From Planctomycetota bacterium (lineage in GTDB: Bacteria; Planctomycetota; B15-G4; JADJEK01), in contig JBGAIQ010000010.1 of assembly GCA_044225365.1 (NCBI GenBank), forward strand, positions 1 through 64,000: a stretch of 64,000 nucleotides of DNA, in the 5' to 3' direction. Position 1 is the first letter of the stretch. Each line of letters begins with the position of its first letter. The notes under the pieces are model-generated. The model saw nothing but the letters and a program-made list of their open reading frames with translations, was not told the origin of the DNA and ran no database searches. The translations under genes were made by a program, and so were the position numbers. Positions 6,033-53,577 of this stretch are shown here, piece after piece.

Positions 6033-6111
6033 GGCTTCGTCCTCGATTCGGTTTCGATTCGGACTTCGATCTCGATGCACTCCGGCCCGGGCAGCATAAC
6101 CCGGGTCGACC

Positions 6112-31469: not shown

Positions 31470-31472
31470 CGC

Positions 31473-33508: not shown

Positions 33509-33514
33509 GATGCG

Positions 33515-33544
33515 TATAATCCCGTCTTTTTTCCGTTCAGGAGA
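33515..33544 (+). promoter_or_regulatory. -10 box and RBS of ndk
   Basis: Perfect TATAAT at 33515-33520 and AGGAGA at 33539-33544. Confidence 0.55.
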
Positions 33545-33550
33545 ATCACT

Positions 33551-35587: not shown

Positions 35588-35667
35588 GAATTCGTCTCAT
35601 CCGGCTCAAGTCGCGTTCCCGTCATGCTCGATGAAGATCGTTGCTTCTCCGGCGGGTCCCGCCGGAG
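35588..35667 (+). promoter_or_regulatory. Putative promoter motif shared with the MCP gene, plus a perfect palindrome in the pilin leader
   Basis: GAATTCG(35588)-N10-CTCAAG(35605)-N18-CGATGA(35629); CTCCGGCGGG-T-CCCGCCGGAG at 35647-35667. Confidence 0.5.
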
Positions 35668-35694
35668 CACGTTCCACGAGCGAAGGGATTGGCC

Positions 35695-36219
35695 ATGCTT
35701 TCAACGTTCCAACGCGCACGAGCGCAGGGTTTCACCCTCGTCGAGCTCCTCATCGTCGTCGTCGTTCTCGGCATCCTCGCGGGCATCGTCCTGCCGTCGA
35801 TCAACACTTCGACCGAAGATGCCAAGGTCTCCGCGACCGTCCAGAACCTCCAGACCGTGCGAGCGGCACTCGACTACTTCAAGCTCGGTCACAACGACAA
35901 GTATCCGGGCTATCCCGCGTCGGGATCGGGCGCGCCGACCGAGGCGTTGACGATCGATCAGCTCACCCTGCAAACGACGAAGGACGGCGCGACCGGAGCG
36001 ATCGGTGACACTGCGTTCCCGCTCGGGCCGTACCTGAAGAACGGGTTCCCGGCGAACCCATTCAACAACCTGAAGACGATCACGGTGATCGCGAACGGTG
36101 GCGCGTTCCCGACCGCCGCCGACGACTCGACGGGCTGGATCTACAAGCCCGAGACGGGTCAGTTCAAGGCGAACACCACGGCGAAGACCGCGGACGATCA
36201 GAACGTCTTCGACTACTGA
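35695..36219 (+). CDS. Major type IV pilin / GspG-like pseudopilin
   Basis: Class III signal RAQG|FTLVELLIVVVVLGILAGIVLP; GPYLKNGFPANPF. Confidence 0.9.
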   Translation: MLSTFQRARAQGFTLVELLIVVVVLGILAGIVLPSINTSTEDAKVSATVQNLQTVRAALDYFKLGHNDKYPGYPASGSGAPTEALTIDQLTLQTTKDGATGAIGDTAFPLGPYLKNGFPANPFNNLKTITVIANGGAFPTAADDSTGWIYKPETGQFKANTTAKTADDQNVFDY

Positions 36220-36231
36220 TCCCGTGCTCTC

Positions 36232-36768
36232 GTGAGTGCGCACCGCATCGTTCTCGGTAGACGCCTTCATTCCGCCTCGCGCGAGTGCGGACTCTTCTCG
36301 TTCGTCGAGATCATGATCGCTTCGCTCATCCTTGCCCTGTCGGCGACCGCGACGGCCTACTGGGTCGAGACCGTGGCGAATCTGACCAACGACGCCGACG
36401 AACAGACGATCGCGACCACGCTCGTGAAGACCGTACAAGGCGTGATCGCCTCGAAGGCGTTCGAAGAAGCCGGTGCGACGACGTTTGGCCCCGAGAGCGG
36501 CGAATCGATCGCGACGTTCGACGACCTCGATGACTTCGACGGCCTCGTGGCGTGTCCCCCCTTCGACGCGCACGGCGCACCGCTCACGCAGCTTCCGACG
36601 TGGTCGGTGCGAATCGAGGTCGCCAACTACGAGTCGAACGCATCGGGCCCATCGAAGCTCGACGACTCCGCCGACGCAACGCTGCGAGGCGTCTCCATCG
36701 ATGTCGAACACGACGGGCGCACCATTGCGCATGCCTTCTGGCTGCGAGCCAGGTCTCCCTTCGAATGA
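36232..36768 (+). CDS. Minor pilin (PilV/MshD-like) with atypical cleavage site
   Basis: ECGLFSFVEIMIASLILAL; FDDLDDFDG motif. Confidence 0.7.
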   Translation: MSAHRIVLGRRLHSASRECGLFSFVEIMIASLILALSATATAYWVETVANLTNDADEQTIATTLVKTVQGVIASKAFEEAGATTFGPESGESIATFDDLDDFDGLVACPPFDAHGAPLTQLPTWSVRIEVANYESNASGPSKLDDSADATLRGVSIDVEHDGRTIAHAFWLRARSPFE

Positions 36769-36775
36769 GGACGTC

Positions 36776-37036
36776 ATGGCCAACGAGAATCGCGACGATC
36801 GATCGAACGTGAGGGCGACCGCCTGGCGGCTCCTTCCGTTCCTCGCACTCTCCTTCCTGTTCCTTCCTCCCTTCACGAGCAGCTCGTCCGGCCGCACGGC
36901 GAGCTCCGGAGATCCTCACGGTCCGATCGCTCCGCCGAATCCGGTCGAGCAGCGCGCCGAGATGATCGCGCTCCTGCGCTCGATCGATTCGCGCCTCGAG
37001 TCGATCGAGAAAGTCCTCGCGAACAAGGCCAAGTGA
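36776..37036 (+). CDS. Small single-TM hypothetical protein
   Basis: GAGG RBS; hydrophobic WRLLPFLALSFLFL; C-terminal amphipathic helix QRAEMIALLRSIDSRLESIE. Confidence 0.55.
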   Translation: MANENRDDRSNVRATAWRLLPFLALSFLFLPPFTSSSSGRTASSGDPHGPIAPPNPVEQRAEMIALLRSIDSRLESIEKVLANKAK

Positions 37037-37064
37037 CTCTCGAGAGTCGCTTCCGGAATCCAAC

Positions 37065-38114
37065 ATGTTCTTCACGCGCACCAGGGTCTCACCGATCGGA
37101 GTCAGTCTCGAGCAGAACGCCGTGCGTCTCTTGCAGCTCGAGCACAAGGGCTCCGAGTGGCGCGTACGAGCGAGCGCCGAGATCGACCGCGGCGATGCCG
37201 AAGGAGCGCCCCTCGATCGCTCCCTCGCGAAGAAGATCGAAGAGGCGTTGCGCACGAATCCGTTCGTCGGGCGCCGCTCGGTGGTCGCATTGCCCTCGGA
37301 TGCGATCGTCGAACGCCACGTCAAGGTGGAGAGCGCCGAAGGTCAGGCGCTCTGCGACCAGCTCCTGTTCGAACTCGAACCGAGCTTCCCGAACGACGTA
37401 CCGATCGTGCAGCATCTCGCCGTCGGCGAAGTCCAGGAGCGCGGCGAACGCCGTCACGAACTCATCGTGCTCGCTGCCTCGCTGCGCGGCGTCGAGTCGC
37501 TCCTCGAATTCCTCGAATCCGCCGATCTCGAACCGATTGCACTCGATGCCGAGAGTTGCGCGATCGTGCGCTGCTTCATGCACCGCCGGCGACGAAAGGC
37601 CGATGCAGAGCGCCAGACGGCGATCGTCCACGTCGGACAGCGCGCGACGTGGATGACGATCACGTCGGCAATGCATCCCATGTTCATGAAGCAGCTCCCG
37701 CTCGGCGCGATGGAACTCCTCGACGCGGCCTCGGCGCGCCTCGGTCTCGGGCGCGACGAGATCCGCATCTGCCCTGCGAGTGATCGCATCGACGAGGAGA
37801 AGGAACTCGGAGACCACGTCGCGCAGGCGCTGCGGCTCCAACTCGACTCGCTCGCGCTCGAGCTCGGCTCGTGCCTTCGCTATCACGCGGCCTCACGCCG
37901 CGGATCCGGACCGCTCGAGATCCTGCTCGTCGGTCCCGGGGCCGAGATCCCCGGCGTCGCCGACTCGCTCGCAGAAGCGCTCGGCGAGCCCGTATCGCGA
38001 CCCGATCCGTTCTGCGCCGCGTACTCCGGTGTCCCGTCCGACCGAAGGACGGCCACGCACTTCCCGTTGTGGTGCGTTCCGCTCGGCCTCGCATTGCGCG
38101 AGGACGCCGCATGA
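37065..38114 (+). CDS. pilM: PilM-like actin-fold assembly protein
   Basis: PIGVSLEQNAVRLLQL, AIVHVGQRAT, ILLVGPGAEIPG, VPLGLALR. Confidence 0.85.
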   Translation: MFFTRTRVSPIGVSLEQNAVRLLQLEHKGSEWRVRASAEIDRGDAEGAPLDRSLAKKIEEALRTNPFVGRRSVVALPSDAIVERHVKVESAEGQALCDQLLFELEPSFPNDVPIVQHLAVGEVQERGERRHELIVLAASLRGVESLLEFLESADLEPIALDAESCAIVRCFMHRRRRKADAERQTAIVHVGQRATWMTITSAMHPMFMKQLPLGAMELLDAASARLGLGRDEIRICPASDRIDEEKELGDHVAQALRLQLDSLALELGSCLRYHAASRRGSGPLEILLVGPGAEIPGVADSLAEALGEPVSRPDPFCAAYSGVPSDRRTATHFPLWCVPLGLALREDAA

Positions 38115-38764
38115 GCGAGATCGACGTCGACTTCCTGCCCCCTTCGTGGCGCGCGCGACGCGCCCAGCGGCGGACGATCGTCTCTCGCGTGGGTGCGAGT
38201 TCGCTCATCCTCCTCACGATCGCGGCCACGCAGGGATTCGTCGCTCACCGCAGCCGGCAGCTCGATGTCGAACTCGCCGGCGTGGCGGCGGAGCACTCGC
38301 ACGCGAGCGAGAAGATCGCCAAGGTCGAAGAACTCGATCACCGCCGTCTCGAACTCGCCGGCAAGCTCGAACTGCTGAAGGACGTCCTGAAACGCGCCCG
38401 CGGCGCGGAGCTGATCGGGGCCATCGGACGCGCGGCGCCGCAGAACGTGGCATTCGATCTCGTCGAGTTCCACGTCAACGATCTGAAGGGCACGCCCGCG
38501 ATCGAGCTCACGGTGCAGGGAACTTGCCTCTTCCACGACGAGGCATCGCTCCTCGCCGAGAATCTGCGTGCCGATCCCAGCTTCTCCGCTGCGCGCCTCG
38601 TGTACTCCCAGGAAGGCGCGATCCCCGGCCTGAAGGAGTTCGTGATCACCGGCCTCGCGCCCGGGCTCCTCGACGAACCGGTGAGCGAGAAGCGGCGCGA
38701 ACGGCCGGTCGGCGCCGACGGCGAGGGTTCGCAAGACAACGAAGGCAAGGGCGACAAGCGATGA
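38111..38764 (+). CDS. pilN: PilN-like alignment protein
   Basis: ATGA coupling; IDVDFLP (INLLP-like) + TM + coiled coil + ferredoxin-like C-domain. Confidence 0.82.
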   Translation: MSEIDVDFLPPSWRARRAQRRTIVSRVGASSLILLTIAATQGFVAHRSRQLDVELAGVAAEHSHASEKIAKVEELDHRRLELAGKLELLKDVLKRARGAELIGAIGRAAPQNVAFDLVEFHVNDLKGTPAIELTVQGTCLFHDEASLLAENLRADPSFSAARLVYSQEGAIPGLKEFVITGLAPGLLDEPVSEKRRERPVGADGEGSQDNEGKGDKR

Positions 38765-39318
38765 CGCATCGCCCCTTGCCCCGATGGATGTTCGTCGCCG
38801 CGCTCGGAGGGACCGCGCTCGTGTTCGGCCAATTCGCGTTGCGCCCGGCACTCGCGGAGATCGCGAGCAAGAAGATGCAGCTCGTGAAGATGCGCGGCGA
38901 GATCGCGAGAGCCGAGGACTTCACGCGAGGTCTCGACGACCTCTCGCGGTATCTGCATGAGTTCTCCATCGCGCTCGACGAGCTCGATCGCCTGGTCCCC
39001 AAGGAGACCGATGCCGATGCTCGCGTCAGCGAGGTGACGACGATCGCCCGCGCCCTCGATCTCACGGTGACGAGCGTTCGCCCCGATCCCGCGGTCCCGA
39101 AGAACGGCATCACCGCGCATCCGCTGACCATCCGACTGCGAGGTGCGTATCTCTCGATCGAGAAGTTCCTCTACTCCCTCGAGGGACTGGAGCGGCATTC
39201 CCGCGTCACGCGCTGTCAGATCGACCGTGCGGACAAGACGGGAACGGATCCGACGGTCGTCGCCCAGATCGAACTCACCTCGTTCTCCCTCGCCGGCGGC
39301 AAGGGAGGTTCGCAATGA
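38761..39318 (+). CDS. pilO: PilO-like alignment protein
   Basis: ATGA coupling; TM, coiled coil, LVPKE, PLTIRLRGAYLSIEKFLYSLE. Confidence 0.85.
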   Translation: MTHRPLPRWMFVAALGGTALVFGQFALRPALAEIASKKMQLVKMRGEIARAEDFTRGLDDLSRYLHEFSIALDELDRLVPKETDADARVSEVTTIARALDLTVTSVRPDPAVPKNGITAHPLTIRLRGAYLSIEKFLYSLEGLERHSRVTRCQIDRADKTGTDPTVVAQIELTSFSLAGGKGGSQ

Positions 39319-40028
39319 GCACGCCGAGGAATCCAGCGCTCCGCACTTTCCCCTCCGATCCCAAGGAGGACACCGCGCTGTCGCGGCTCACTTACGAGCT
39401 GAGGAACAGCCCGGTCAAGGCCGTGGTCCTCGGCGTCGGCATCCTCGTCGCCCTTCTCGTGTGGGTACCGCGCTTCGTGACGCGAAGCTCCGACGCAGGC
39501 TCACAGACGACCTCCACGACGAAGGACCCGGCGTCGAACGCCTCGCCTTCCTCGTCGTCTGCGCTCGCGGGTTTCGTCGCGAATCTCGCGGATGGCTCGT
39601 CTCGCGACTCGTTCGCGATGCGCACCGAATTCATGCGGATCTCCCAGGAAGCACAGCAACTCCACCGCTTCGCCGACGGCATCGAACCGCGCGCATCGTC
39701 GCGCGACCCGTTCGCGAGGATCGCGACGAAGAAGCCCCCGAGCGTGGCGCCCGATCCGCCGCCGCAATCGGAGGACACCAGCGAGACTCCGGCCCTACTC
39801 GAAAGCGACGCCGAACGCGCGCGCGTCGCTCTGCTGCGGATCGACGGCATCGTTCGCTTCGCGACGCATTCGCAGTGTTTCCTCGGTGGCATGCGGCACG
39901 AGGTCGGCGAGACGATCGACGGCGGGCTCACGATCGAGACGATCGAAGAACGCGCCGTCGTCCTGAAGGGCAAGTACGGCACCTACCGACTCGAGATGCA
40001 TCACGGCGACAAGGAGTCCCATCGATGA
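39315..40028 (+). CDS. PilP/MshK-like protein
   Basis: TM, RDPF motif, C-terminal LRIDGIV...VGETIDGGLTIETIEERAVVL beta-domain; lies between pilO and the secretin. Confidence 0.65.
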   Translation: MSTPRNPALRTFPSDPKEDTALSRLTYELRNSPVKAVVLGVGILVALLVWVPRFVTRSSDAGSQTTSTTKDPASNASPSSSSALAGFVANLADGSSRDSFAMRTEFMRISQEAQQLHRFADGIEPRASSRDPFARIATKKPPSVAPDPPPQSEDTSETPALLESDAERARVALLRIDGIVRFATHSQCFLGGMRHEVGETIDGGLTIETIEERAVVLKGKYGTYRLEMHHGDKESHR

Positions 40029-41704
40029 GATTCGCAACCTGGTGCGAAGTCGGGATCGCCCTCTCGCTCGGCGGGTCGATGCAGGCGCAGGTCGCCGCGC
40101 CGCCGACCGGCGCTGGAACGGGCATGACTGCGCCACGATCCGAACGCGTCACATTGAGTCTCGATCACGTTCCGCTCTCGAAGGCGCTCGAGTCGTTCGC
40201 GGTCGAGTATCGAATGAACGTCGTCGCCGGCCCGGGGATCGGCGGCGAGGTCACGCTGAACTTGTTCGACGTACCGGTCGAGGACGCGCTGAGGGCGATC
40301 CTCGCGGCGAACGGCTACGGCTACCGTCGCAGCGGCCCCTTCTATCTGATCGCCAAGCTCGATCAGCTCACCGACACTCCGCTCGTCGACCCGCTCGAGA
40401 GTCGGATCGTCTGGCTCGACTACCTGCGCGCCGACGACGCCCTGAAGCTCATCGAACCGCTGAAGTCGAAGGATGGCTCGTTCGTCGCGGGCAGCCCCGC
40501 CGAAGCCGGGCTGAACGAGGATTCGAAGCAAGCGGGCGGGAACTCGCAGGCCGTCGGCGAGGTGCTGCATCTCCACGACAAGCGCTCGGTGATCGACGAC
40601 GTCGTGAAGGTCCTGAAGGAGCTCGACAAGCGCCCGCGTGAAGTGCTCGTCGAAGCCGTCGTCCTCGAAGTGAAGCTCTCGAACGACACGAAGCTCGGGA
40701 TCGATTTCAACACGCTCTCCGGGATCGACTTCAAGGACCTCTCGGGCGTGTCGGATTTCAACAAGGTGCTCACCGCGCCGGTGACGGACGGCAAGACGTT
40801 CGAGAAGGGCGCCGCCAGCGCGGGGACCTTTGGCTTCGCGAACGACGGCAACACGGATGGGCTGCACGTCGGAATCCTCGGCGACAGCGTCGCGGTCTTC
40901 ATCGAGGCGATCGAGCGGGTGACGGACACCACCGTGCTCGCGAGCCCGCGCGTGCTCGCGGTCGATCGCCAGAAGGCCGAGATCATCATCGGATCGAAGT
41001 TGGGGTACAAGTCGACGACCACGACCGAGACCGCCACGGTCGAAGACGTGCAGTTCCTCGACGTCGGAACACAATTGCGATTCCGGCCGTTCATCTCGAG
41101 CGACGGCTTCGTCCGCTTCGAGATCCATCCCGAGAGTTCGACGGGCGTCGTCGATCCGATCTCCGGCCTTCCATCGGAGACCACGACGGAGGTGACGACG
41201 AACGTCGTCGTGAAGGACGGCTCGACGATCGCTCTCGGCGGTCTCATCGGCGACCAGGTCGAGACCGTCACGAAGCAGGTTCCGCTGCTCGGGAGCATCC
41301 CGCTCATCGGGTTCCTGTTCCGTTCGTCGAACGACACGGTCGAGCGCCGCGAGATCATCGTCCTCATGACGCCGCACATCATCGACCCGTCGGCCTCCGA
41401 CGTGGCGACGCTCGCGGAGGCCGACACGATGGCCTCGGCTCGCGATCTCGTCTTGCGCGAGCACCTGCCGCTGTCCCGCGCACGCCTCGCAAAGCCCATC
41501 CTCGAGCGCGCGGAGCAATGCCTTCGCGATGGCGACGCCACCTCTGCAGCAAGACTCGCCGACACCGCACTGTTCCTGATCCCCGCCGACCTGAGGGCCG
41601 TGCGCATCCGCCGCGACGCACTCGCGATGCTCGGCGTGAAGGATCGCGACGCACGCACCCTCGAGGCCCTCGAAGGTCTGAACGCCATGGCCGGGAACCG
41701 CTGA
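40025..41704 (+). CDS. Secretin (PilQ/GspD/MshL family) with C-terminal TPR-like tail
   Basis: Signal peptide, STN domain, VLVEAVVLEV, LASPRVLAVDRQKAEIIIG, VPLLGSIPLIGFLFR. Confidence 0.93.
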   Translation: MRFATWCEVGIALSLGGSMQAQVAAPPTGAGTGMTAPRSERVTLSLDHVPLSKALESFAVEYRMNVVAGPGIGGEVTLNLFDVPVEDALRAILAANGYGYRRSGPFYLIAKLDQLTDTPLVDPLESRIVWLDYLRADDALKLIEPLKSKDGSFVAGSPAEAGLNEDSKQAGGNSQAVGEVLHLHDKRSVIDDVVKVLKELDKRPREVLVEAVVLEVKLSNDTKLGIDFNTLSGIDFKDLSGVSDFNKVLTAPVTDGKTFEKGAASAGTFGFANDGNTDGLHVGILGDSVAVFIEAIERVTDTTVLASPRVLAVDRQKAEIIIGSKLGYKSTTTTETATVEDVQFLDVGTQLRFRPFISSDGFVRFEIHPESSTGVVDPISGLPSETTTEVTTNVVVKDGSTIALGGLIGDQVETVTKQVPLLGSIPLIGFLFRSSNDTVERREIIVLMTPHIIDPSASDVATLAEADTMASARDLVLREHLPLSRARLAKPILERAEQCLRDGDATSAARLADTALFLIPADLRAVRIRRDALAMLGVKDRDARTLEALEGLNAMAGNR

Positions 41705-41712
41705 GGAAGTCG

Positions 41713-42861
41713 ATGCGAATCCACCCCCTGCTCGTCCTCCTCTCGACGCTCACGACGGCCTGCGCGAACGACGCCGGCAACGGCGGAGGCGACTCCGGCG
41801 ATGCGTTCAAGCCCGCCAACGCGGATCTGCACACTCGCCTCGCCGATCATGCCTACGCCCGCGGCGATCTCTTGCCGGCCCGCGCCAACGCGCGGGAAGC
41901 GCTCCGCATCGATCCGCGTCGCGGCGATGCGGCCAAGATCCTCGCACGTGCCGAGGTCCTGCTCGGTTCCAAGGAAGCTGCGCTCGCGGCTGCTCGCCGC
42001 GCGACGGCCCTCGCCCAGGACGACGCCGACGCGTGGCTCCTACTCTACGATTGCGCCGAGGAAGCCGGCGAATTCGAGGAGGCGAACTCCGCGCTGGAGC
42101 GCTCGGTGGCCCTTGGTTCCGCCGACGCCGGACTCGCCTCCGCGGGTCGAGCGCTCGCGGCCGGGGACGAAGCTCCGATCCGCGACCTGCTCGCGAGCGA
42201 ACCTCGTTCGCACGCCGCCCTCGGGCTCTATGCCGATCGCCTCGCCGCTACTGGCCGCGGCACCGAGGCGATCGCACTCCTCGACGCCGCCTTGGGGAAG
42301 ACTCCGAACGACTCCGCCCTCGCCCTCACGCGCCAGCGAATCTCCATCGACAACGCCGTGATCGCGCCCCCGCGAGAGCTCCGCGAATCGAATTCGCCCG
42401 AATCCATGCTCCTCGACGCGGCGATGCTCCTGAAGCGCGGTGAGGCCTCGAAGGCCGCGGCGGCGTATCGCGAGATCGTGCGCGCCGAACCGACCCACGT
42501 CGTTCCGCGCATCTGCCTCGGAGAAGCACTGCTCGCGATGAACGACCACCTCGGCGCCGTCGCGGCGTTCGAGTCGGCGCTCGAGATCGACTCGCACGAT
42601 CTCGACGCATTGCTCGGCATCGCCCGCGCGCATCTCGTTCGCGGAGCGTACGAGGACGCCCTGACGACACTCGACCGCGCGAACCTCGTCGCGCCCGATC
42701 GCCTCGCGGTCCACGGCCTCCTGGTCGCCGCGGCGCATGGCGCCGGCGATGTGAAGCGGGCAACGGCGGAAGCGATCGCCGTTCGGCGCATCGATCCCGG
42801 CGGAGCGATCGACCTGCGTTGCCGGGAGATCCTCGCAACGAAGGCGGAACGGCCGAAATGA
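41713..42861 (+). CDS. TPR lipoprotein (pilotin/MshN-like)
   Basis: GAGG RBS; lipobox LTTAC; multiple TPRs. Confidence 0.75.
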   Translation: MRIHPLLVLLSTLTTACANDAGNGGGDSGDAFKPANADLHTRLADHAYARGDLLPARANAREALRIDPRRGDAAKILARAEVLLGSKEAALAAARRATALAQDDADAWLLLYDCAEEAGEFEEANSALERSVALGSADAGLASAGRALAAGDEAPIRDLLASEPRSHAALGLYADRLAATGRGTEAIALLDAALGKTPNDSALALTRQRISIDNAVIAPPRELRESNSPESMLLDAAMLLKRGEASKAAAAYREIVRAEPTHVVPRICLGEALLAMNDHLGAVAAFESALEIDSHDLDALLGIARAHLVRGAYEDALTTLDRANLVAPDRLAVHGLLVAAAHGAGDVKRATAEAIAVRRIDPGGAIDLRCREILATKAERPK

Positions 42862-44354
42862 CCACGACGCCGCTCCGAGTGATGAGCACGATCCTCGCCG
42901 CGATCGGCGCCGCGGCGGCTTCGTGCGCCTTCGGTCTTGGCTCGCCGCCGATCGGGGCCGGAATCGCGGGGGCGCTCGTGACCGTTGGCGGTGTCGTCGC
43001 GACGGCGCTGCTCGGTCGCCCCAGCGCGGCGGAGATCGCGCGCTTTCGCGCCCACCTCGAGCAGGCCGCCCCTTCGGCGGGATCGACCTTGGAGCGCACC
43101 GACTCGTTCAGGGGACACGGCGAACCCTTCGACACTCTCGCGCTGATCGCGACCGACGTCATCGCCACATTGCGAGCCGAACTCGAGACCAAGGGAGCCG
43201 ATGCGAGAAGGGCTCGCCTCGCCGCGCGTGGCCTGAAGACCGAGCATGCCGCATTCTCCGCGCTCTTGGACAATCTCGGCGACGGCATCGTCCTGTTCGA
43301 TCCCTCGCACACTCCGGTGATCGCGAATCGCGCAGCGCGACGTTTCTTCGGCCTCCAGGAAGGCACCCACGACGCTCCGTTGCCGAGCGACCTGTCCGCC
43401 GCGATCCCGCGGGCAACGCTCCGCGCTCCGCTCGAACGAGCGCTGAAGTTCGCCGACCCGGAGTCGCGCGCGTCCCGCACGATCGACGCCTCCGACTCGA
43501 AGGAGCGACTCGTCCTGCACGTGCAGTTCCAGGAGATCGCGGATGCGCGCTTCGAGAAGGACGATGCGAGATCGCTCGCGGTCGTGCTGCGCGACGTCAC
43601 GCGAGAGGTGGATCTCGATCGCATGAAGTCCGACTTCGCGTCGAGTGTCTCGCACGAGCTGAAGACGCCGTTGTGCTCGATGCGAGCCTTCCTCGAGATG
43701 CTGATCGATGGCGACATCGAGGGCGAGGAGGCGCAGCGCGAGCACCTGCGCCTCGTGCTCGATCAGACCGATCGACTCACGCGGCTGATCCAGAACCTGC
43801 TGAACCTCTCGCGTCTCGAAGCGGGCATCACCCGCATGGCGCGCGAGCCGATCGCGCTTCCCGATCTCCTGCGTCGAATCGAGGACATCGCAGCGCCCCT
43901 TGCGAGATCGCGGCGCCAGCGACTCGCTTTCGAGGTCTCGTCGTTCCTGCCGACCGTGACGGGGGACGCTTCGTTGCTCGAACAAGGCGTGCTGAACCTC
44001 GTGAGCAACGCAATCAAGTACACGCCCGAGGGCGGCTCGATCCGCGTGGTCGCCGCACTGCTCGGTCGCGAGGTCGAGATCCGCGTGATCGATACCGGCG
44101 TCGGAATTCCGGCATCGGCGCTCGATCTGATCTTCGAGAAGTTCACGAGGATCGAGAACAACGCCGGGCTCAAGGCGACCGGGACCGGACTCGGACTCCC
44201 GCTCGCGCGATTCGTCGCCGAGGCCCACGGCGGTCGGATCAAGGTCTCCTCCGAAGTCGGCAAGGGCAGCGAATTCCGCATGACGCTTCCTCTGCGGCGC
44301 GCGACCGACGACCACGAAGCCGTACTCGTTGGACTGGAAGGAATCGGACGATGA
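42858..44354 (+). CDS. Membrane PAS sensor histidine kinase
   Basis: Two TMs, PAS (LLDNLGDGIVLFD...NRAA), H-box SHELKTPL, NLVSNAIKYT, DTGVGI, GTGLGL. Confidence 0.93.
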   Translation: MTTTPLRVMSTILAAIGAAAASCAFGLGSPPIGAGIAGALVTVGGVVATALLGRPSAAEIARFRAHLEQAAPSAGSTLERTDSFRGHGEPFDTLALIATDVIATLRAELETKGADARRARLAARGLKTEHAAFSALLDNLGDGIVLFDPSHTPVIANRAARRFFGLQEGTHDAPLPSDLSAAIPRATLRAPLERALKFADPESRASRTIDASDSKERLVLHVQFQEIADARFEKDDARSLAVVLRDVTREVDLDRMKSDFASSVSHELKTPLCSMRAFLEMLIDGDIEGEEAQREHLRLVLDQTDRLTRLIQNLLNLSRLEAGITRMAREPIALPDLLRRIEDIAAPLARSRRQRLAFEVSSFLPTVTGDASLLEQGVLNLVSNAIKYTPEGGSIRVVAALLGREVEIRVIDTGVGIPASALDLIFEKFTRIENNAGLKATGTGLGLPLARFVAEAHGGRIKVSSEVGKGSEFRMTLPLRRATDDHEAVLVGLEGIGR

Positions 44355-44785: not shown

Positions 44786-45636
44786 ATCGAAGCGAGGATC
44801 TCCAAAGGAACTCGCTGTTCGTGATTCGCGCCGCACTGGTCGGCGCCGCGATCGGCACCCTCCTCGCGATCCTGCTCGAACGCGGGCTTCCCCGCCTGTC
44901 CGCCGCTCTCGTGTGTGCCACGACCACTGCGTGCTACGCCATCGCAACGCGCAATCGGGAGGCCGGTCTCGTACGCCGCCTCGTCGCGCTCGAGAACGAA
45001 TCGCTCGAACTGAGGCGTACCGTCTTCCATCTCAAGAAGGGCTCTCGAGGGCCGAGCGATGAGACGGTGATGCCGGGTGGGCGCGACTCGCGGGAGGCCC
45101 TGCTCGCGGCCACCGTCCTCGCGATCTCCTCCGAGCTGAACGAAACGCGCGTCCTCGAGAGCGCGGCGCGCGGCGTGCTGGCCTCGACCGGCGCGCGCGA
45201 GGTCGCGATCTTCCCCCACGATCGACGTACCGACCGATTCGTACGCGGCTTCGTCGCCCGCGCCGCCGAGTCCCCAGCGGGCGGATTCGATGTCCTTGCG
45301 GCGGTCCCGACGGCCACCGAGGAGCCCGCGATGCGCACGGCATTGAGGCGTCGGCAACGCGTCGGTTCGCACGATGGCGATTCCACGAGCAAGGCGGCGT
45401 TCGACGTCGCCGGCGGCGACCTCGTCGCCGTCGCGCCGCTCTACGATCGCGCCATCACGTGCGGGGTCGTCGTCGTACGTGGCGAGGTCGAACCGCTTCG
45501 CCTCGCGGCGCTCGACGGCATCGCGGCGGCGACGTCGCTCGCGCTCACCAACGCGCGGCTGCGCAGCAGCGTCGCGAGCCACGACGAGGCGCGTGCGGAT
45601 CTTCCTACGAAGGGCAAGGCGGACCTCCATGCGTAG
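44782..45636 (+). CDS. Two-TM GAF-domain protein without output domain
   Basis: GTG after GGAGGAG; two TMs, coiled coil, GAF-like (ISSELNETRVLE...VAVAPL...LALTNARL), then stop. Confidence 0.7.
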   Translation: MNRSEDLQRNSLFVIRAALVGAAIGTLLAILLERGLPRLSAALVCATTTACYAIATRNREAGLVRRLVALENESLELRRTVFHLKKGSRGPSDETVMPGGRDSREALLAATVLAISSELNETRVLESAARGVLASTGAREVAIFPHDRRTDRFVRGFVARAAESPAGGFDVLAAVPTATEEPAMRTALRRRQRVGSHDGDSTSKAAFDVAGGDLVAVAPLYDRAITCGVVVVRGEVEPLRLAALDGIAAATSLALTNARLRSSVASHDEARADLPTKGKADLHA

Positions 45637-45972
45637 CCCCGAAGAACGCATCGGCCAGGTCGTCGTGTTGAGGCTCGACCATCCGATCGACCGCGATCAC
45701 GTTCGCGAACTCGAATCCTGGACGAAGGAGAAACTGCGCGCCGGCGAACGCCTCCTCGTGTGGCATTGCGGCAAGACGCTCTTCTTCGACAGCGTCGGCC
45801 TCGAAGCCGTCCTCGCGATCACTCGCGAGGCCGCGGCGCAGAGTGCACGCTTCGCCCTTTGCAACCTCAACGCCGATTGCTCGACGACGCTGCGCGTCAC
45901 GCGACTCGAGCGCGCGATCGAACACTACCTGACCCTCGAGGACGCGCTGAAGGCCCTGCGCGGGAGGGCTGC

Positions 45973-45976
<4 letters not shown>
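45629..45976 (+). CDS. STAS domain protein (anti-sigma factor antagonist-like)
   Basis: VVVLRLDHPID, FFDSVGLEAVL with phosphorylatable Ser, LRVTRL. Confidence 0.85.
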
Positions 45977-47705
<1,729 letters not shown>

Positions 47706-47709
<4 letters not shown>

Positions 47710-48965
47710 ATCGTGAAGACCCGCCGTTCGCGCGTTCGTCGACGCGACCGCTGCCGCGTCTCGATGCCATGCATCGACGACCGGTCCCGGCCGCGACGGC
47801 GGAGCTTCGGGCGCTCGCAAACGTCCGTCACGGCGCTCAGATCCTGAAGGACAAGGCCGGCGCCCGGAACGACGATTCGACGAGCGGACTCCTCCACCAA
47901 ACCACCGAGACCCGAGCCGTCCCGGGTCCCATCCGCCCGCGCGACAAGCTCTTCTTCTTCGCCCAGCTCTCGGTGATGATCGGCGCGGGCGTACCGATCG
48001 CGGTCGCCCTCGAGGGCATCGCGCGTCAGAGCGATCGATTGCGCCTGCGAAAGGTGCTCCTCGCGGTCCTCGCGCACGTCGAGGACGGCGGCTCCTTGTC
48101 GTCGGGCCTCGCGAACCACCCCGCGATCTTCGAGTCGCAAGCCATCCAACTCGTGCATGCCGGCGAGACGTGCGGCGATCTACCGACCATGCTGACGCGC
48201 ATCTGTCGCCTCCTGGAGCGCGACTACGAGATGCGCAAGAAGCTGAAGTCTGCGCTCACCTATCCACTCGTGATGGTCGCGCTCGCGATCACCACGATCG
48301 GATTTCTCTTCGGCTTCATCCTCCCGCGTTTCCGCACCCTCTACGCGGGCCGCGAGAACGTCTTGCCGAAACCCACCAAGCTGCTCATGGCCGCCGGCGA
48401 TTTCGTCGCCGCCTATTGGATGGTCCTCGCAGGAATCGCCGTCGTCCTGATCACCGCCGCGATCGTCTTCGCGCGCTCCGAACGCGGGAAGACGATCCTC
48501 GATCGGACCGCGCTCTTCCTGCCGATCGTCGGCAACGTGCTGCGTCGCTTCTCGCTCGCCCGCTCGGTGCGCACGCTCGGAGCGCTGCTCCACGGCGGCG
48601 TGCCGATCGTCTCGGCACTCGAGATCGCCCGCGATCTCGCGAGCAATCGGACCCTGCGCGACAGTTGGGAGTACGTGCGATTGCGGGTGAAGGACGGCGG
48701 ACGCATCTACGAGGGCATGGCGGGTCAGGAGTGGTTCCCCGGAACCCTCGTGCAGATGACGGCAATGGGCGAGTCGAGCGGTGCTCTCGAGTCGGTCCTG
48801 GTCCAGGTCGGCGAGTTCTACGACCGCGAGGCCGAGGTCGCCGTCGCCGATGCCACCGCGCTGCTCGAGCCCCTGATGGTCGTCGTCGTCGGTGTCGTCG
48901 TCGGCTTCATCGCGATGTCGATCATGCTCCCGATCTTCAACGTCACGAAGCTGGTGCATCACTGA
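47706..48965 (+). CDS. PilC/GspF/MshG platform protein
   Basis: QLSVMIGAGVP, AGETCGDL, ALTYP, GESSGALE, LLEPLM; start uncertain (TTG 47706 or ATG 47769). Confidence 0.93.
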
Positions 48966-48966
48966 C

Positions 48967-50154
48967 ATGGCTCGCACGACGAAAAACCCCGGGCGCAGGT
49001 CGCAGGAGAACCGTGATCGCGGATTCTCCGCCGCCGAGATGTTGCTCGTCGTCGCTCTGTCCGGAGTCGTCTTCGTCGGGCTCGCGGCGTTGATCGACGT
49101 CCCGCAGAGGATGGCGGAGCGCGAGAATCATGGCACGCCCTCCATCGCGAGCGCCGACACCGCACTCGCGACGCTCGACCAGGACGTGCGCTACGCCACG
49201 ACCGTTCGCGTTCCGAGCGCGACGCGCGTCGAAGCGGATCAGGCCGACGGCCGCACGATCGCCTGGGAGATCGTCGGTGGAGCAGAGAAGGTGCTCGAGC
49301 GCACGGCCGACGGCTCGACCGTACCGATCCTCCGCAACATCGCGGCAGGTTCGTTCGCTCTCGAGACCGCCCGGACGGTCCGCCGGCACGACGAGTCACG
49401 CGCCCTCGCGACGGCGGCCGTGTCCGTCGCATCGTTCAATGCTTTCGCCTTGCGCTCTGGTTACGCATTCGGTGCAGGTGGCCGCGGAGTGACGGGAGTC
49501 TCGGTCGTATCGGGTCAGAACGACATCGACTCCGTTCATACGGTTGGGATCTACTTCGCCCCGGGTTCGCTCGGCGGTGATCGCGGCGTGCCGACCGCGA
49601 TTCGCCTCAAACTCCAGCGCAACGGCTCCGAGGATCTCTTGCTGCAGATCTTCGAAGCGAGTCCAACCACGCGCCTTCCGAATCGCTCGGTGATCGTCGC
49701 GAATGGGCGCCTCTACAATCGTCAGATCCCGCTCGCACTCTCCGACGTCTCCGTACCGCTCGCGATGACGAAGAAGCTCGATCCGAGCAAGTCGTACTTC
49801 GTCGAGATGCACGCGCGCGGCGGCGCCGCGGCGAAGATCGACACGCAGACGCTGTCGGTTCCAGCCGCGGCGCAATCGGCTGCGAGTACGTTCTTCTACT
49901 CGAACGATGGCGGCACGAGTTACGCGGCGCTCGGCTCGAGCAACGACGCGAGTCAGACTCGCTTCACGTTCGACGCCTTGAAGGTCTCCATCACCACGGC
50001 TCCGGACGACGCCGACGGGCTTCCACCGGGATTCGACGCGGTCGACGTCGGAATCGGCGTCGTCCTCCACTTCACATTGTCGACCGCGGAGGGACCCGAG
50101 TCACTCGCGACCACCGTTCCGATCGTCAACAACCTTCCGATCGTGAACCCCTAG
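48967..50154 (+). CDS. Large minor pilin (PilW/GspJ-like) with C-terminal beta-rich domain
   Basis: DRG|FSAAEMLLVVALSGVVF. Confidence 0.78.
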   Translation: MARTTKNPGRRSQENRDRGFSAAEMLLVVALSGVVFVGLAALIDVPQRMAERENHGTPSIASADTALATLDQDVRYATTVRVPSATRVEADQADGRTIAWEIVGGAEKVLERTADGSTVPILRNIAAGSFALETARTVRRHDESRALATAAVSVASFNAFALRSGYAFGAGGRGVTGVSVVSGQNDIDSVHTVGIYFAPGSLGGDRGVPTAIRLKLQRNGSEDLLLQIFEASPTTRLPNRSVIVANGRLYNRQIPLALSDVSVPLAMTKKLDPSKSYFVEMHARGGAAAKIDTQTLSVPAAAQSAASTFFYSNDGGTSYAALGSSNDASQTRFTFDALKVSITTAPDDADGLPPGFDAVDVGIGVVLHFTLSTAEGPESLATTVPIVNNLPIVNP

Positions 50155-50168
50155 GTGGATGGTCTCAC

Positions 50169-51332
50169 ATGAAACCGCGGCGCGAACACGGCTCGGCGCT
50201 CATCCTCGCCCTCCTCATCTCGGCCTCCGCCGCGATCGCCGGGATGTGGATGGTGCTCACCACCGATCTGCGCGCGCGCGCGAATCGTTACCTCGCCCGC
50301 GCCGCCGACTCGACGCGCAACGCCGAGAGCGGACTCGAGATCGCGCGCGTCGAGCTCGGCAAGGACGCGGGATGGAGCGGGATCACGTGTGGCCTCGGCG
50401 CGAGTGATGCCGGGGAGGTCACGGTCCTCGCGACACCCGCCGGTGTGTATCGCTCGTCGGTGCACTCCATCGGCAAGCTCGGCGAGACGCTGCAGTCGAT
50501 CACCGCCGAGTTGCGCGCCCCGGCCCATGCGTCGCTCTCGTTCAACGTGGTCTCCGCCAGTACGATCACGATCGACGATGCGGTGCTTGGCGGCCACCTG
50601 CGCGCCAACGGCTCGGTGATCGCGACGGGCGACGTCTCCTTCAACGGCACTTTGGAGACCTCGACGGGTTCGACCGTCACGAGCGCGATTCCCTCGTCGC
50701 AGGTCGCCTACGTGTCCTCCGCGATCGCGCCGCCGACGGTCGACATCAACGGTCTCGCCGCCCGGTGCACGCCGCTCGTCGGTGTCCCCTACTCGGCGGC
50801 CGACCAGGCCCTGCTCATCGAGCGCGTCCGCCTCTCCCCCGCGTCCGATCCCTATGGCGGCGTCAATGCCGCGGGCGCCTACGTTCTCGATGCCGGAGGC
50901 AAGGCCGTCGTGCTGCGCGACTCGTGCATCGTGGGAATGTTGATCGTGACGGATGCGGCCGTCGTGCGGGTCGAGAACGCATACCGACACGAGCGCGCCG
51001 ATGCCTCGCTGCCATCCCTCCTCGCCGATTGCGACCTCGAGCTGCGTGCGTGCGGCACGCTCGACGAGGCCGCGCTCCAGGTCGACATGAACGGCGACGG
51101 CGACATGTCCGACGTCCTTCCCTCGGAGCTCGACGGAATCGTCCTGTCGAAGGGCAAACTCACGCTCGCGTCCACCGCGATCGTGAAGGGCGTCGCGATG
51201 GGACAGACCGTGGCGATCGGCAGCGCGCCGACGCTGACGGACGAAGCGCAGCTCGCGACGACCCCGGTGCGCGAGTTCATCGCCGCCGGAGCCTTCGAGA
51301 TCGTCGCCGGCAGCGTCGGAGATCAGGGATGA
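50169..51332 (+). CDS. PilX-like minor pilin with beta-helix-like C-terminal region
   Basis: EHG|SALILALLI (no Glu5), NAESGLE, repetitive G-x-hydrophobic beta strands, DMNGDGD Ca-binding-like motif. Confidence 0.75.
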   Translation: MKPRREHGSALILALLISASAAIAGMWMVLTTDLRARANRYLARAADSTRNAESGLEIARVELGKDAGWSGITCGLGASDAGEVTVLATPAGVYRSSVHSIGKLGETLQSITAELRAPAHASLSFNVVSASTITIDDAVLGGHLRANGSVIATGDVSFNGTLETSTGSTVTSAIPSSQVAYVSSAIAPPTVDINGLAARCTPLVGVPYSAADQALLIERVRLSPASDPYGGVNAAGAYVLDAGGKAVVLRDSCIVGMLIVTDAAVVRVENAYRHERADASLPSLLADCDLELRACGTLDEAALQVDMNGDGDMSDVLPSELDGIVLSKGKLTLASTAIVKGVAMGQTVAIGSAPTLTDEAQLATTPVREFIAAGAFEIVAGSVGDQG

Positions 51333-52969
51333 CCCCCGATCGACCCCGCCTGCGGATGAACTCGGTGCTCTCGCATCGAGTGGCGAATCGGAGCTCCGAG
51401 ATCGAGAAGCTCTCCGACGATCTCGGCGAGGCGTACGAACAACTCACGTTGATCTACAAGACGGTGCGCCACCTCGGGGCATCGTTCGAGCTCGATCCCA
51501 TCGCTCGCCAACTGGTCGACCGCGCGCTCGAGGCTGCACCCGCGACCTCCGCGGCGCTCTACCTCGCCGACGGTCGGACGAAGAACGGCTTCGAGATCGT
51601 GGCGTCGCGCGGAGTCCCCATCCCGAAACTGGCGAGCGGGTCCGTCGAACGCCTCGCGTCCGCGTCGATCCCCCAGTTCCTCTCCGGCGAACTCGCGCGG
51701 ACCGAACTCGATCCCAGCATCTCCGGTACGTGCGAGCACCTGCTCGCCGCGCCGCTCGAAGCTGGCGGGCGAACGCTCGGGCTGCTCGTGATCCTGCGCG
51801 CCGATTCGAAGCGATTCACCACGGTCGAAGCCAAGCTCCTCGGCGCGCTGTGCAACGTGACCGCGGTCGCGGTCGCGAACTGGCAGCACTATCGTGCGAT
51901 CCAGAACGAGCGCGAGATGCTCTACGGTGTCATTCGCGAGATCGGCGACGGCATCATCATCGCCAACGAGCACTGGACCGCACGCCACACCAATCAAGCC
52001 GCGCGACGCCTGCTCGGCGTGACTCGAAGCGACGAGGAATACGACGCGCTGTGGAAATTGCGCGCTTTCCGTCTCTCGGTTCCCGAGTCCGAGTTGCGCG
52101 AGGGCGCAGCAGCGACCCTGGAGTTTCGCGCGGATTCGCCCGATCCACGACGCCCGCTGTCGCTCGCCTGCCGCGTGTTCCGGGCCCAGTTCGGCGCCGC
52201 CGCGGAGCCGGTCCTCGTCCTGCAACTGCGGGACGTCACCCGCGAGCGCAGCGAGGCCGAGGCGCAGCGCGACTTCATGTCGCTCGCATCGCACAAACTG
52301 CGAACTCCCCTCACCAAGATCGAAGGCCTGTTGCCGATCCTCGGCGATCGCACCGCTTCCGCGGAGGTCGCGAGCGACGCCGTCGAAGGCGTCCACTCCG
52401 GCGCGCGCGAGCTCGCCGCGTTGATCGACGGCATCCTCGAGTTCGTCGAGTATCGACGCACCGATCACGCGCAGGAGGAGGTCGCCCTGCCACCGATCGT
52501 CGCCGATGCCATCGCACGAGTCATCGAACGGCGTGGTTGCGGCCCCGCCGTCAACGTCACCGTCGCGGACGGAGTGCCGCGAGTCCTTGGGTCCGCGCGG
52601 ATGCTCCGCCGCCTCGTCGAGAGCCTCGTCGACAACGCGATGAAATTCTCGCCGCAAGGAGCGTCTCCGATCGAGGTCCGACTCGATCCGCTGCTCGAGA
52701 AGGGCGGCGAACCCTGCGGGGTCCTGCTCGTCGTCCGCGATCACGGCGAAGGCATGACTCCCGAACTCCTGGAGCGCGCGTTCTTGCCGTTCTCCCAGCG
52801 CGATCTCGGATTCACGGGTCAGGACGATGGCGCCGGACTCGGACTGCTCCTCGCGCGCGAGATCGCGAATCGTCACGGCGGACGTCTCTACGCGACGAGC
52901 GAACTCGGCAACGGCTCGGTGTTCTTCGCCGAACTCGACGCGCGCGGTTTCGTCGGAGTCACCTCGTGA
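51329..52969 (+). CDS. Cytoplasmic GAF-PAS histidine kinase-like protein with atypical H-box
   Basis: GAF (LLAAPLEAGGRTLGLL), PAS (IGDGIII...NQAA), SHKLRTPL, DNAMKF, DHGEGM, GAGLGL. Confidence 0.88.
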   Translation: MTPDRPRLRMNSVLSHRVANRSSEIEKLSDDLGEAYEQLTLIYKTVRHLGASFELDPIARQLVDRALEAAPATSAALYLADGRTKNGFEIVASRGVPIPKLASGSVERLASASIPQFLSGELARTELDPSISGTCEHLLAAPLEAGGRTLGLLVILRADSKRFTTVEAKLLGALCNVTAVAVANWQHYRAIQNEREMLYGVIREIGDGIIIANEHWTARHTNQAARRLLGVTRSDEEYDALWKLRAFRLSVPESELREGAAATLEFRADSPDPRRPLSLACRVFRAQFGAAAEPVLVLQLRDVTRERSEAEAQRDFMSLASHKLRTPLTKIEGLLPILGDRTASAEVASDAVEGVHSGARELAALIDGILEFVEYRRTDHAQEEVALPPIVADAIARVIERRGCGPAVNVTVADGVPRVLGSARMLRRLVESLVDNAMKFSPQGASPIEVRLDPLLEKGGEPCGVLLVVRDHGEGMTPELLERAFLPFSQRDLGFTGQDDGAGLGLLLAREIANRHGGRLYATSELGNGSVFFAELDARGFVGVTS

Positions 52970-53451
52970 AGGAACGAGGCGAGGCCGGATTCACGCTCGT
53001 CGAGGTGCTCTTGATGATCCTGATCGGGATCATCCTCGCGGGGGCCGCGCTGCCGAACATCGGCACGCTCGCCGATCTCGAGGTCTCGGCCGACGCTCGC
53101 GTGCTGGCGGCGGACATGGAGTTCGCACGAGCGAGGGCGCTCGCGACCTCGCAACCGCACCGTTTGTCCTTCGACACCACGCTCGAGCGCTACGCCGTCG
53201 AATCGCCAGTGGGAACTCCCCTGCTCGAACCTCTCGGCAAGCAACCCTGGGTACGAATGCTCTCGCCGTCCCCCGGTGCGGGCGGGGGAACCGACATCGT
53301 CTCGGCCGATTTCGCTGGAGCGCCTCACCTCGACTTCGATCCCGCGGGGCGCCCGCTCGCGGCGGGCACGGTCGTCCTCCATCGCGGAGCGTTCTCCGCG
53401 AGCGTGAGCATCGCCGCCGTGACGGGCGAGGTCTCCCTCGAACTGCCTTGA
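52966..53451 (+). CDS. FimT/GspH-like minor pilin
   Basis: GTGA coupling; EAG|FTLVEVLL; ADMEFARARALA; FDPAGRP. Confidence 0.88.
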   Translation: MKERGEAGFTLVEVLLMILIGIILAGAALPNIGTLADLEVSADARVLAADMEFARARALATSQPHRLSFDTTLERYAVESPVGTPLLEPLGKQPWVRMLSPSPGAGGGTDIVSADFAGAPHLDFDPAGRPLAAGTVVLHRGAFSASVSIAAVTGEVSLELP

Positions 53452-53577
53452 ACTTCGCCGCGGCCAACAAGTCCGCCCCCACTGTTCACGGTCCCGGGGC
53501 GAGAGGTTACTATGGGCCGCATCGAGGCTAACCGCCTCCGACCCGCGGTGACCCTCTCGAGAGAACAGGCCCCGTCG

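Follow-up and report, generated by a model that had tools for sequence, protein, structure and literature searches.

An operon for a type IV filament on contig JBGAIQ010000010.1 of a Planctomycetota bacterium (GCA_044225365.1) contains, between the gene for a TPR lipoprotein and the genes for the assembly ATPase PilB and the platform protein PilC, four genes encoding a histidine kinase, a stand-alone receiver (REC), a transmembrane GAF protein and a STAS protein. Our analysis covered positions 1-64,000 of this contig, which we refer to as the window. We lean towards the reading that the filament ATPase is controlled after translation by these operon-embedded signalling genes, with the STAS protein serving as an adaptor comparable to PilZ. 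In the mechanism we propose, STAS would bind the ND1 (MshEN_C) part of the PilB N-terminal region via its canonical partner face, formed by the Asp54-Ser55 loop and the following helix, and would act on PilB as an adaptor or gate, as PilZ does in Xanthomonas. The membrane kinase and the receiver would pass a signal into the STAS-PilB complex, so that control would run from the kinase towards the motor. The third cassette gene may originally have encoded a GAF-regulated enzyme of cyclic di-GMP (c-di-GMP) metabolism that adjusted the c-di-GMP concentration around the MshEN domain of the ATPase, as active enzymes at this position in other lineages would still do; this enzyme appears to be catalytically dead in the family to which the genome belongs and to be reduced to a membrane-anchored GAF stub in the genome itself, where control would probably depend on protein contacts and phosphorylation rather than on c-di-GMP turnover. 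A first-pass annotation of the same DNA had treated the cassette as integral to the operon and had suggested action on the ATPase, of which the first is confirmed and the second is supported for STAS; its MSHA-like classification needs correction, its phosphorelay or partner switch is not supported, and it had missed the c-di-GMP history of the locus.

STAS genes accompany a single PilB orthogroup

The families of the order are labelled f1 (the window's own) to f5. In all seven f1 loci that were fetched, the genes for the kinase, receiver, GAF protein, STAS protein, PilB and PilC are colinear as far as the contigs reach, with one contig ending before STAS, and the kinase, receiver, STAS, PilB and PilC sequences are 52-76% identical to those of the window. 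A sample of 42 genomes of the order, including this one, was searched with PilB at an ortholog threshold of E ≤ 1e-150, yielding orthologs in 11/11 genomes of f1, 5/5 of f5, 12/16 of f3, 0/8 of f4 and 0/1 of f2. Upstream of PilB, the f5 loci have the order kinase-receiver-STAS-PilB-PilC with no middle gene (5/5), and the f3 loci have secretin-STAS-PilB-PilC with no histidine kinase or receiver gene within 1.5 kb (12/12). A STAS gene is located from -4 to +35 nt before PilB in every one of 35 loci (4 from f1, 5 from f5, 12 from f3 and 14 from elsewhere in the phylum), and the two genes overlap by 4 bases in 18 of them. The 21 loci from the order were selected via PilB rather than STAS, and the 14 phylum loci via STAS. 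The conservation of this arrangement beside pilus genes in relatives supports the first annotation, in which the cassette was regarded as an integral part of the operon.

In the phylum as a whole, 249 of 301 genomes contain a match to a STAS profile, generic STAS proteins being common. Among the best 20 STAS places outside the order, STAS directly precedes PilB-PilC in 14, with a histidine kinase gene just upstream in 12 of these 14 and a receiver gene as well in 9. Because these 14 loci had been picked through STAS, the phylum was also searched starting from PilB, using 101 genomes at least 90% complete, with 49 matched at E ≤ 1e-140. For matches outside the order at 48-52% identity, STAS lies upstream in five of six cases (from coordinates and locus L086), whereas only one of 18 best-per-genome matches at 41-46% identity is accompanied by a STAS match, which is weak; 10 of these 18 sit behind another PilB/PilT-type gene. 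By this comparison, the STAS gene thus appears to be tied to one PilB orthogroup and not to PilB genes generally. The genome under study contains nine full-length PilB-type genes, of which the cassette PilB alone shares a contig with a STAS match. A search with a STAS alignment restricted to f1 recovered 11 loci, all in metagenome-assembled genomes of Planctomycetota or Phycisphaeraceae and equal in number to the other f1 genomes of the order sample; a search with the single window STAS protein found no relative. One complete genome of another family carries two separate STAS-PilB pairs (G042:C1, ~2149819-2151863 and ~2784790-2786813, from coordinates).

Predicted binding of STAS to the N-terminal region of PilB

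Beyond its Pfam match, the window protein is placed in the STAS family by profile matches in the PDB to SpoIIAA, RsbV, TM1442-type antagonists and MlaB; none of the 26 PDB entries matched is named as a partner of PilB or GspE. In an alignment of 36 sequences, Asp54 and Ser55 are present in 35, Thr91 is invariant, and Leu58 and Glu59 are conserved at a level of at least 90%. The conserved Asp-Ser pair corresponds to the phospho-loop of this family, whose serine is the switch element of SpoIIAA-type proteins.

The complex of full-length PilB and STAS was predicted in three runs, each protein being supplied with its own 36-row alignment, together with three controls. The runs gave values of the confidence score ipSAE of 0.77, 0.76 and 0.77, and the best control gave 0.00. 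These values are read against a mark that 116 of 157 solved complexes attain, as do 2 of 215 mismatched pairs; the counts are a rough guide only, given that custom alignments were used. At least 94% of contacts agree among the runs, and the predicted local distance difference test (pLDDT) of the partners is at least 86. In the model, the conserved serine loop of STAS packs on the MshEN_C (ND1) part of PilB, which Pfam MshEN covers at residues 65-143. The confident interface comprises PilB residues 67, 69, 72, 74-75, 77, 79-80, 97-101, 103, 105, 107, 129 and 131 and STAS residues 22, 51-55, 58-59, 62, 83-84, 86-87 and 89-93.

As a check on this interface, the 36 STAS-linked PilB proteins were aligned with five of this genome's PilB paralogs that have no linked STAS gene, a comparison that hinges on aligning divergent N-termini. 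Position 75, a leucine in the window protein, is L, I, M or Y throughout the orthogroup and E, K, S, S and I in the paralogs. Asp77 is present in 36/36 orthogroup members and is D, A, E, P and D in the paralogs; position 98 is F or Y in 36/36 and K, L, A, G and N in the paralogs; and position 100 is V or I in 36/36 and E, K, L, T and I in the paralogs. The complex prediction with its clean controls and the orthogroup-specific identities of these contact residues together support binding of STAS to the ND1/MshEN_C part of PilB, and with it, for STAS, the earlier idea that the cassette acts on the adjacent ATPase. Because Ser55 lies in the predicted interface, its phosphorylation would be expected, by analogy with SpoIIAA, to release PilB.

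Several observations weigh against this proposal. The f3 loci indicate that the core of the system can do without the kinase arm, and neither the operon nor the window contains an RsbW-type serine kinase or a PP2C phosphatase that could act on STAS. The conserved serine of STAS could be structural, the ipSAE values express the confidence of a model obtained with custom alignments, and the paralog comparison carries the alignment dependence noted above. PilB residues 10-63 pass the NCBIfam model NF053729, which describes an MshE-related c-di-GMP motif. The published MshEN motif is 24 residues long, and the same report describes Arg9 of Vibrio MshE as involved in c-di-GMP binding (PMC5013675). 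The PilB of the window has an intact motif II and a spacer of 6 residues rather than 5, and its motif I starts with proline rather than arginine, as it does in all seven family sequences printed. Many PilB orthologs linked to HD-GYP genes likewise have imperfect MshEN motifs. Given the proline in motif I and these imperfect motifs, c-di-GMP binding by this PilB family is doubtful on sequence grounds. A rule by which an active enzyme would go together with a perfect MshEN motif across lineages was rejected, the motifs varying without a clean pattern.

Alternatively, STAS could serve this PilB orthogroup constitutively, as a structural cofactor or a chaperone, with no switch involved, in which case the kinase, receiver and GAF genes would act elsewhere, on another output or on the pilins, and would merely be co-expressed. 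This arrangement could account for the retention of STAS-PilB in all 12 f3 loci that have no kinase or receiver nearby, for the absence of a STAS kinase or phosphatase from the operon and for the repeated loss of the c-di-GMP enzyme (in f5, f3 and this genome). It sits poorly, however, with the presence of a histidine kinase gene just upstream in 12 of the 14 phylum loci and in all f1 and f5 loci, and with a predicted interface that employs the serine loop, the switch element in SpoIIAA-type proteins. We therefore regard a purely constitutive role as unlikely, though it is the alternative to which we give the most weight, and retain the proposal that STAS is a regulated adaptor of PilB.

The gene between the receiver and STAS genes

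The 284-residue product of the third cassette gene has no Pfam or NCBIfam match itself, so that no GGDEF or HD domain is detected in it. An AlphaFold2 model computed from a seven-sequence alignment (mean pLDDT 79, and approximately 90 over residues 110-270) has two long N-terminal helices followed by an alpha/beta domain, and hydropathy reveals one N-terminal hydrophobic segment over threshold. Foldseek places only GAF domains at the top of its PDB list for this model, led by 5w10 (E 4.9e-7) and including the GAF-HD-GYP protein 4mcw. The model and its matches bear out the earlier description of this product as a transmembrane GAF protein without an output domain.

In the six f1 orthologs that were extracted, the protein is longer (360-494 residues) and extends into a GGDEF domain, with Pfam GGDEF matched in 6/6 (best E 3e-18) and Pfam GAF in 4/6. 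Alignment reveals that the active site of this GGDEF domain is degenerate, with GGA(T/A) and then F, L or M where an intact site has GG(D/E)EF. The window protein ends at the GAF/GGDEF boundary, 8 bases inside the STAS gene, and is, in this assembly and as judged by alignment, a cut-down form of the family's protein with transmembrane, GAF and degenerate GGDEF parts. The shortened gene lacks independent confirmation, because only in the probable source run does a contig span the GAF/STAS junction; three other runs yield contigs that break at approximately 45602-45635.

A different middle gene occupies this position outside the order. Among nine loci tested there, it encodes GAF plus HD_5 in seven, GAF plus GGDEF (with GGEEF) in one and an unclear product in one, and the HD-GYP signature HHER.DG.GYP is invariant in all seven GAF-HD_5 proteins. 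Within the order, 10 of the 11 other f1 genomes contain a homolog of the GAF protein, and the same query matched none of the 29 genomes that represent the four other families. Common descent of the f1 GAF-GGDEF and the GAF-HD-GYP middle genes is not significantly supported (hhalign probability 0.23). The loci of this order show an apparent stepwise loss of the middle-gene enzyme. The earlier statement that the signalling proteins contain no c-di-GMP enzyme domain consequently holds for the window alone: the same position is occupied by GAF-HD-GYP or GAF-GGDEF elsewhere and by a degenerate GGDEF domain in the family, and the ATPase has an MshEN motif. In one locus with an active-looking GAF-GGDEF gene (L058, G109:C1), a PilT-like ATPase segment is present between PilB and PilC at 6006-6455.

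Such losses raise the question of whether this genome's signalling arm is in decay and has largely ceased to function, leaving the shortened GAF protein as a relic beside an unregulated filament machine. The absence of the GGDEF domain that is present in 6/6 family orthologs, the degenerate GGA(T/A) motif across the family and the change from arginine to proline in MshEN motif I are all compatible with decay. Yet all reading frames are intact, the junctions are coupled and third-codon-position GC is of the coding type; the GAF domain is modelled confidently; and the 52-76% identity of the kinase, receiver and STAS proteins to their orthologs across six genera points to purifying selection. We consider wholesale decay improbable and prefer a functional cassette that has lost its enzyme.

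The kinases and the receiver

The kinase that begins the cassette and the receiver that follows carry the hallmarks of two-component systems, their HisKA, HATPase_c and REC domains scoring over the Pfam cut-offs. By eye, the phospho-pocket of the receiver is complete, with DDD at 16-18, D60, T89 and K111. We infer that the kinase phosphorylates the stand-alone receiver, which may in turn modulate the GAF protein or the STAS-PilB complex. The control by phosphorelay and partner switch that had been envisaged in the first-pass annotation is not upheld, since no RsbW-type kinase or PP2C phosphatase is found in the window and the kinase-to-receiver step is only predicted from the domains.

The same proteins might instead form an ordinary two-component and partner-switch set for gene expression, in which the target antagonized by STAS would be an RsbW-type anti-sigma factor from another contig and the place in the operon would reflect co-regulation only. 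STAS does belong to the family of anti-sigma antagonists, two strong HATPase_c_2 and two SpoIIE matches are found on other contigs of the genome, and a gene for an extracytoplasmic function (ECF) sigma factor is present at 29944-30528. However, Pfam and NCBIfam searches detect no DNA-binding domain in any cassette protein, the tight phylum-wide coupling of STAS to PilB concerns a single PilB orthogroup, and binding to PilB is predicted where the controls score zero. In addition, the genome's best generic STAS match is located on another contig (G000:C66, ~139810-141637), approximately 1 kb from a divergently oriented SpoIIE-type phosphatase match, and the two resemble a classical partner-switch pair that is distinct from the STAS of the pilus operon. 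An expression switch is accordingly the least probable of the explanations considered, and we deem it very improbable; the preferred reading remains that STAS acts on PilB.

The second kinase, encoded near the end of the operon, has a region (residues 24-225, a YEQL-type helix plus GAF) that weakly matches the sensor half of GAF-HD-GYP proteins of other families (tblastn, E 1e-5 to 1e-9). The sensor module of those proteins seems, from these matches, to have been reused here on the second kinase.

Type of filament machine

None of the core proteins of the operon reaches an NCBIfam equivalog cut-off. The ATPase scores 609.5 bits with GspE (cut-off 630.25) and 593.3 bits with PilB TIGR02538 (cut-off 675.65), and the secretin ranks GspD (201.9 bits, cut-off 351.35) above PilQ (189.1 bits) and MshL TIGR02519 (127.5 bits, cut-off 250.2). 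Other models of the type II secretion system are also matched under their cut-offs (GspF 295.3/424, GspG 54.3/88.85 and GspM 28.8/60 bits), and Pfam and NCBIfam detect no GspC or GspL among the operon proteins. With regard to the type IVa alignment complex, PilM_2, PilO and Secretin exceed their Pfam cut-offs, the proteins in the N and P positions have no family match, and TIGR01175 and TIGR02515 remain under their cut-offs. No PilT-like or prepilin-peptidase gene is present on this contig, in agreement with what had been noted earlier for the window, and matches to both are found on other contigs of the genome. We therefore call the operon a diverged type IV filament system, on account of a gene plan with PilM, PilO and secretin as in type IVa pili, no PilT nearby and no GspC or GspL.

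The earlier label "MSHA-like" (for mannose-sensitive haemagglutinin pili) rests on the gene order and the MshEN domain, and we do not retain it. The order mshL-N-E-G is that of the msh operon, among whose features are the MshM ATPase and a fused MshI. The secretin-TPR-ATPase-platform order seen here resembles it, and the ATPase shares with Vibrio cholerae MshE an N-terminal MshEN domain that passes NF053729. In contrast with the Vibrio system, motif I begins with proline and the spacer is one residue longer, MshL is not the best secretin model, no MshM-like gene is found and no extra ATPase gene lies between the secretin and PilB genes, and PilM and the N-position protein are encoded by two separate genes, distinct from the PilO gene, rather than by a fused MshI. 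To our knowledge, the Vibrio msh operon does not include genes for c-di-GMP enzymes.

Relation to known systems

In Xanthomonas citri, PilZ is described as binding PilB "predominantly" via ND1, which its authors equate with MshEN_C, and the PilB residues named for this contact are 72, 77, 100, 101, 103, 108 and 134 (PMC8389850). Both systems would thus place a small adaptor on ND1 of PilB, the predicted STAS footprint (PilB 67-131) lying in the same subdomain, by a comparison made at the level of the subdomain and not residue by residue. The likeness extends to the PdeK-PdeR-FimX-PilZ-PilB pathway of Xanthomonas, in which a kinase, a receiver-linked c-di-GMP phosphodiesterase and a protein with degenerate c-di-GMP domains shape the activity or localization of the motor (PMC11656802). 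The resemblance is functional only. The adaptor here is a STAS protein, no operon protein matches PilZ or EAL, the phosphodiesterase of relatives is a GAF-HD-GYP protein that is a polypeptide separate from the receiver, and all parts are encoded within the filament operon and translationally coupled to pilB, in Planctomycetota and not Gammaproteobacteria.

The nearest biological precedent is the Hmp partner-switching system of Nostoc punctiforme. Hormogonium motility that depends on type IV pili requires the module HmpU-W there; the output of this module is the STAS protein HmpV, whose downstream effector is described as undefined (PMC6495340). The cassette STAS would likewise be a signalling output in a pilus-linked process. 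Unlike the STAS protein studied here, HmpV has a dedicated PP2C phosphatase and serine kinase and no reported PilB link (PMC6495340), whereas the planctomycete gene has no such pair nearby and is coupled to pilB.

SpoIIAA and RsbV belong to the same fold family as the cassette STAS, and the Asp-Ser loop is the contact face in our model. MlaB, a STAS subunit bound to the ABC ATPase MlaF, provides a precedent for STAS as the partner of an ATPase. The predicted partner here differs from both, being the N-terminal domain of a hexameric ATPase of the PilB/GspE type rather than a GHKL kinase or an ABC ATPase. In the searchable literature, which leaves subscription-only papers outside its coverage, we found no description of a STAS partner of PilB or of this cassette, and the words STAS, HD-GYP and Planctomyc do not occur in a 2024 review of PilB cofactors.

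What licenses the extension motors of type IV filaments is under active study, and the occurrence across a phylum of a kinase-receiver-(c-di-GMP enzyme)-STAS module before one PilB orthogroup provides a concrete hypothesis with predictions at the level of residues (PilB D77 and F98, STAS S55). More tentatively, and with less confidence than we place in PilB control as such, these STAS proteins could constitute an unrecognized class of ND1-binding PilB adaptors: planctomycete counterparts of PilZ, switched by phosphorylation of an interface serine and wired to a kinase-receiver pair and a c-di-GMP enzyme, in a module that in this lineage would be moving from nucleotide-based to purely protein-based control. 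If true, STAS partner switching would be extended to secretion and pilus ATPases, and PilB would be suggested as the kind of effector on which STAS outputs such as Nostoc HmpV act. The natural series of loci with an active enzyme, a dead enzyme, a stub or no enzyme represents a ready comparative experiment.

Organization of the operon

The gene model was built from open reading frames, third-codon-position GC and start-codon context, in a region with a G+C content of 65-69%. It comprises 19 genes, all on the + strand, spanning 35695-53451 (Table 1), which confirms the gene order first described, including the location of the cassette between the secretin and TPR genes and PilB-PilC. A crude, independent gene caller based on third-codon-position GC recovers every operon gene except that for the 115-residue STAS protein. 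Ten junctions are 4-base overlaps (pilM/N, N/O, O/P, P/secretin, TPR/kinase, kinase/receiver, receiver/GAF, STAS/PilB, that between the gene at 50169-51332 and the second kinase, and second kinase/FimT), of which those at receiver/GAF and second kinase/FimT are of the GTGA type. The GAF/STAS junction is an 8-base overlap, the secretin and TPR genes are separated by an 8-nt gap, and the remaining non-overlapping junctions are 1-28 nt apart. The PilB/PilC junction depends on the start of PilC: TTG at 47706 produces an overlap, and ATG at 47769 a 59-nt gap. The near-universal overlap first described from pilM to pilC is therefore largely upheld, most junctions there overlapping by 4 bases. Four terminator-like sites were found, fewer than the 9.4 expected from shuffled sequences. 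A sigma-70 promoter scan found no promoter in the stretch, the sigma-70 model being uninformative for this phylum.

Most of the names first given to the parts agree with our assignments, namely those of the pilin, PilM, PilO, secretin, TPR protein, kinases, receiver, STAS protein, ATPase, PilC and FimT; the labels pilN, P/MshK-like and minor pilin (for the 387-residue protein) are without a family match, and the 86-residue "small TM protein" contains no segment above the hydropathy threshold.

Table 1. Genes of the filament operon and the basis for their assignment; "family" denotes f1
Product	Position	Strand	Basis
Major pilin/pseudopilin, 174 aa, G|FTLVE prepilin motif	35695..36219	+	Pfam N_methyl 32.8 bits; GspG model fits N-terminus only
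Pilin-like protein, 178 aa, G|LFSFVE	36232..36768	+	No family match; pilin-like N-terminus, one hydrophobic segment; conserved in family loci
86-aa protein, no assignment	36776..37036	+	No family match; weak similarity in 2/7 family loci
PilM	37065..38114	+	Pfam PilM_2 62.5 bits (cut-off 27); TIGR01175 99.4 bits, under cut-off 133
PilN-position protein	38111..38764	+	No family match; position and one N-terminal hydrophobic segment only; ATGA overlaps on both sides
PilO	38761..39318	+	Pfam PilO 45.3 bits (cut-off 22)
PilP-position protein, one hydrophobic segment	39315..40028	+	Sub-threshold T2SSB 19.3 bits (cut-off 28.4); 29-37% identity in family loci
Secretin	40025..41704	+	Pfam Secretin 139.5 bits and STN; GspD, PilQ and MshL models all under cut-offs (scores in text)
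TPR lipoprotein-like protein	41713..42861	+	TPR families; lipobox-like N-terminal LTTAC
Histidine kinase, PAS-HisKA-HATPase_c, two N-terminal hydrophobic segments	42858..44354	+	Pfam/NCBIfam, hydropathy; 52-62% identity in family loci
Stand-alone receiver (REC), 144 aa	44351..44785	+	Pfam Response_reg 92.5 bits, no further domain
Membrane-anchored GAF protein, 284 aa	44782..45636	+	AlphaFold2 model and Foldseek GAF matches; apparently shortened relative to family TM-GAF-degenerate-GGDEF protein
STAS protein, 115 aa, conserved Asp54-Ser55, predicted PilB-binding adaptor	45629..45976	+	Pfam STAS 45.6 bits (cut-off 22.6); complex prediction
PilB/GspE-type assembly ATPase, MshEN N-terminus	45973..47709	+	T2SSE 453 bits; Pfam MshEN 60.9 bits at residues 65-143; NF053729 58.5 bits (cut-off 38)
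PilC/GspF platform protein, start TTG 47706 or ATG 47769	47706..48965	+	Pfam T2SSF in two stretches
Large pilin-like protein, 395 aa, G|FSAAE	48967..50154	+	Weak N_methyl 17.1 bits, under cut-off
387-aa protein, N-terminal hydrophobic segment, possibly GspK/PilX-like minor pilin	50169..51332	+	No pilin family match; 37-44% identity in family loci
Second histidine kinase, soluble, GAF-PAS-HisKA-HATPase_c	51329..52969	+	Pfam domains
GspH/FimT-like pseudopilin	52966..53451	+	Pfam GspH 26 bits (cut-off 21)

Neighbouring genes

The operon is flanked by housekeeping genes. Downstream, at 53512-55034, the gene for a 377-residue TPR protein ends on the first base of rnpA (RNase P protein), producing a 1-base overlap, and no rpmH was seen before rnpA. 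Upstream, the gene for nucleoside diphosphate kinase (33110-34018) may, from a candidate start, encode an N-terminal extension of approximately 150 residues without a family match, its NDK domain being located at residues 150-283. Behind the ECF-type sigma factor gene mentioned above lie two genes in the same orientation, with products of 314 and 496 aa that have no Pfam match, and this group (29944-32963) could represent an anti-sigma module. A second group of pseudopilin-like genes occupies the - strand at 61375-64000, with an N_methyl match at 61908-63062.

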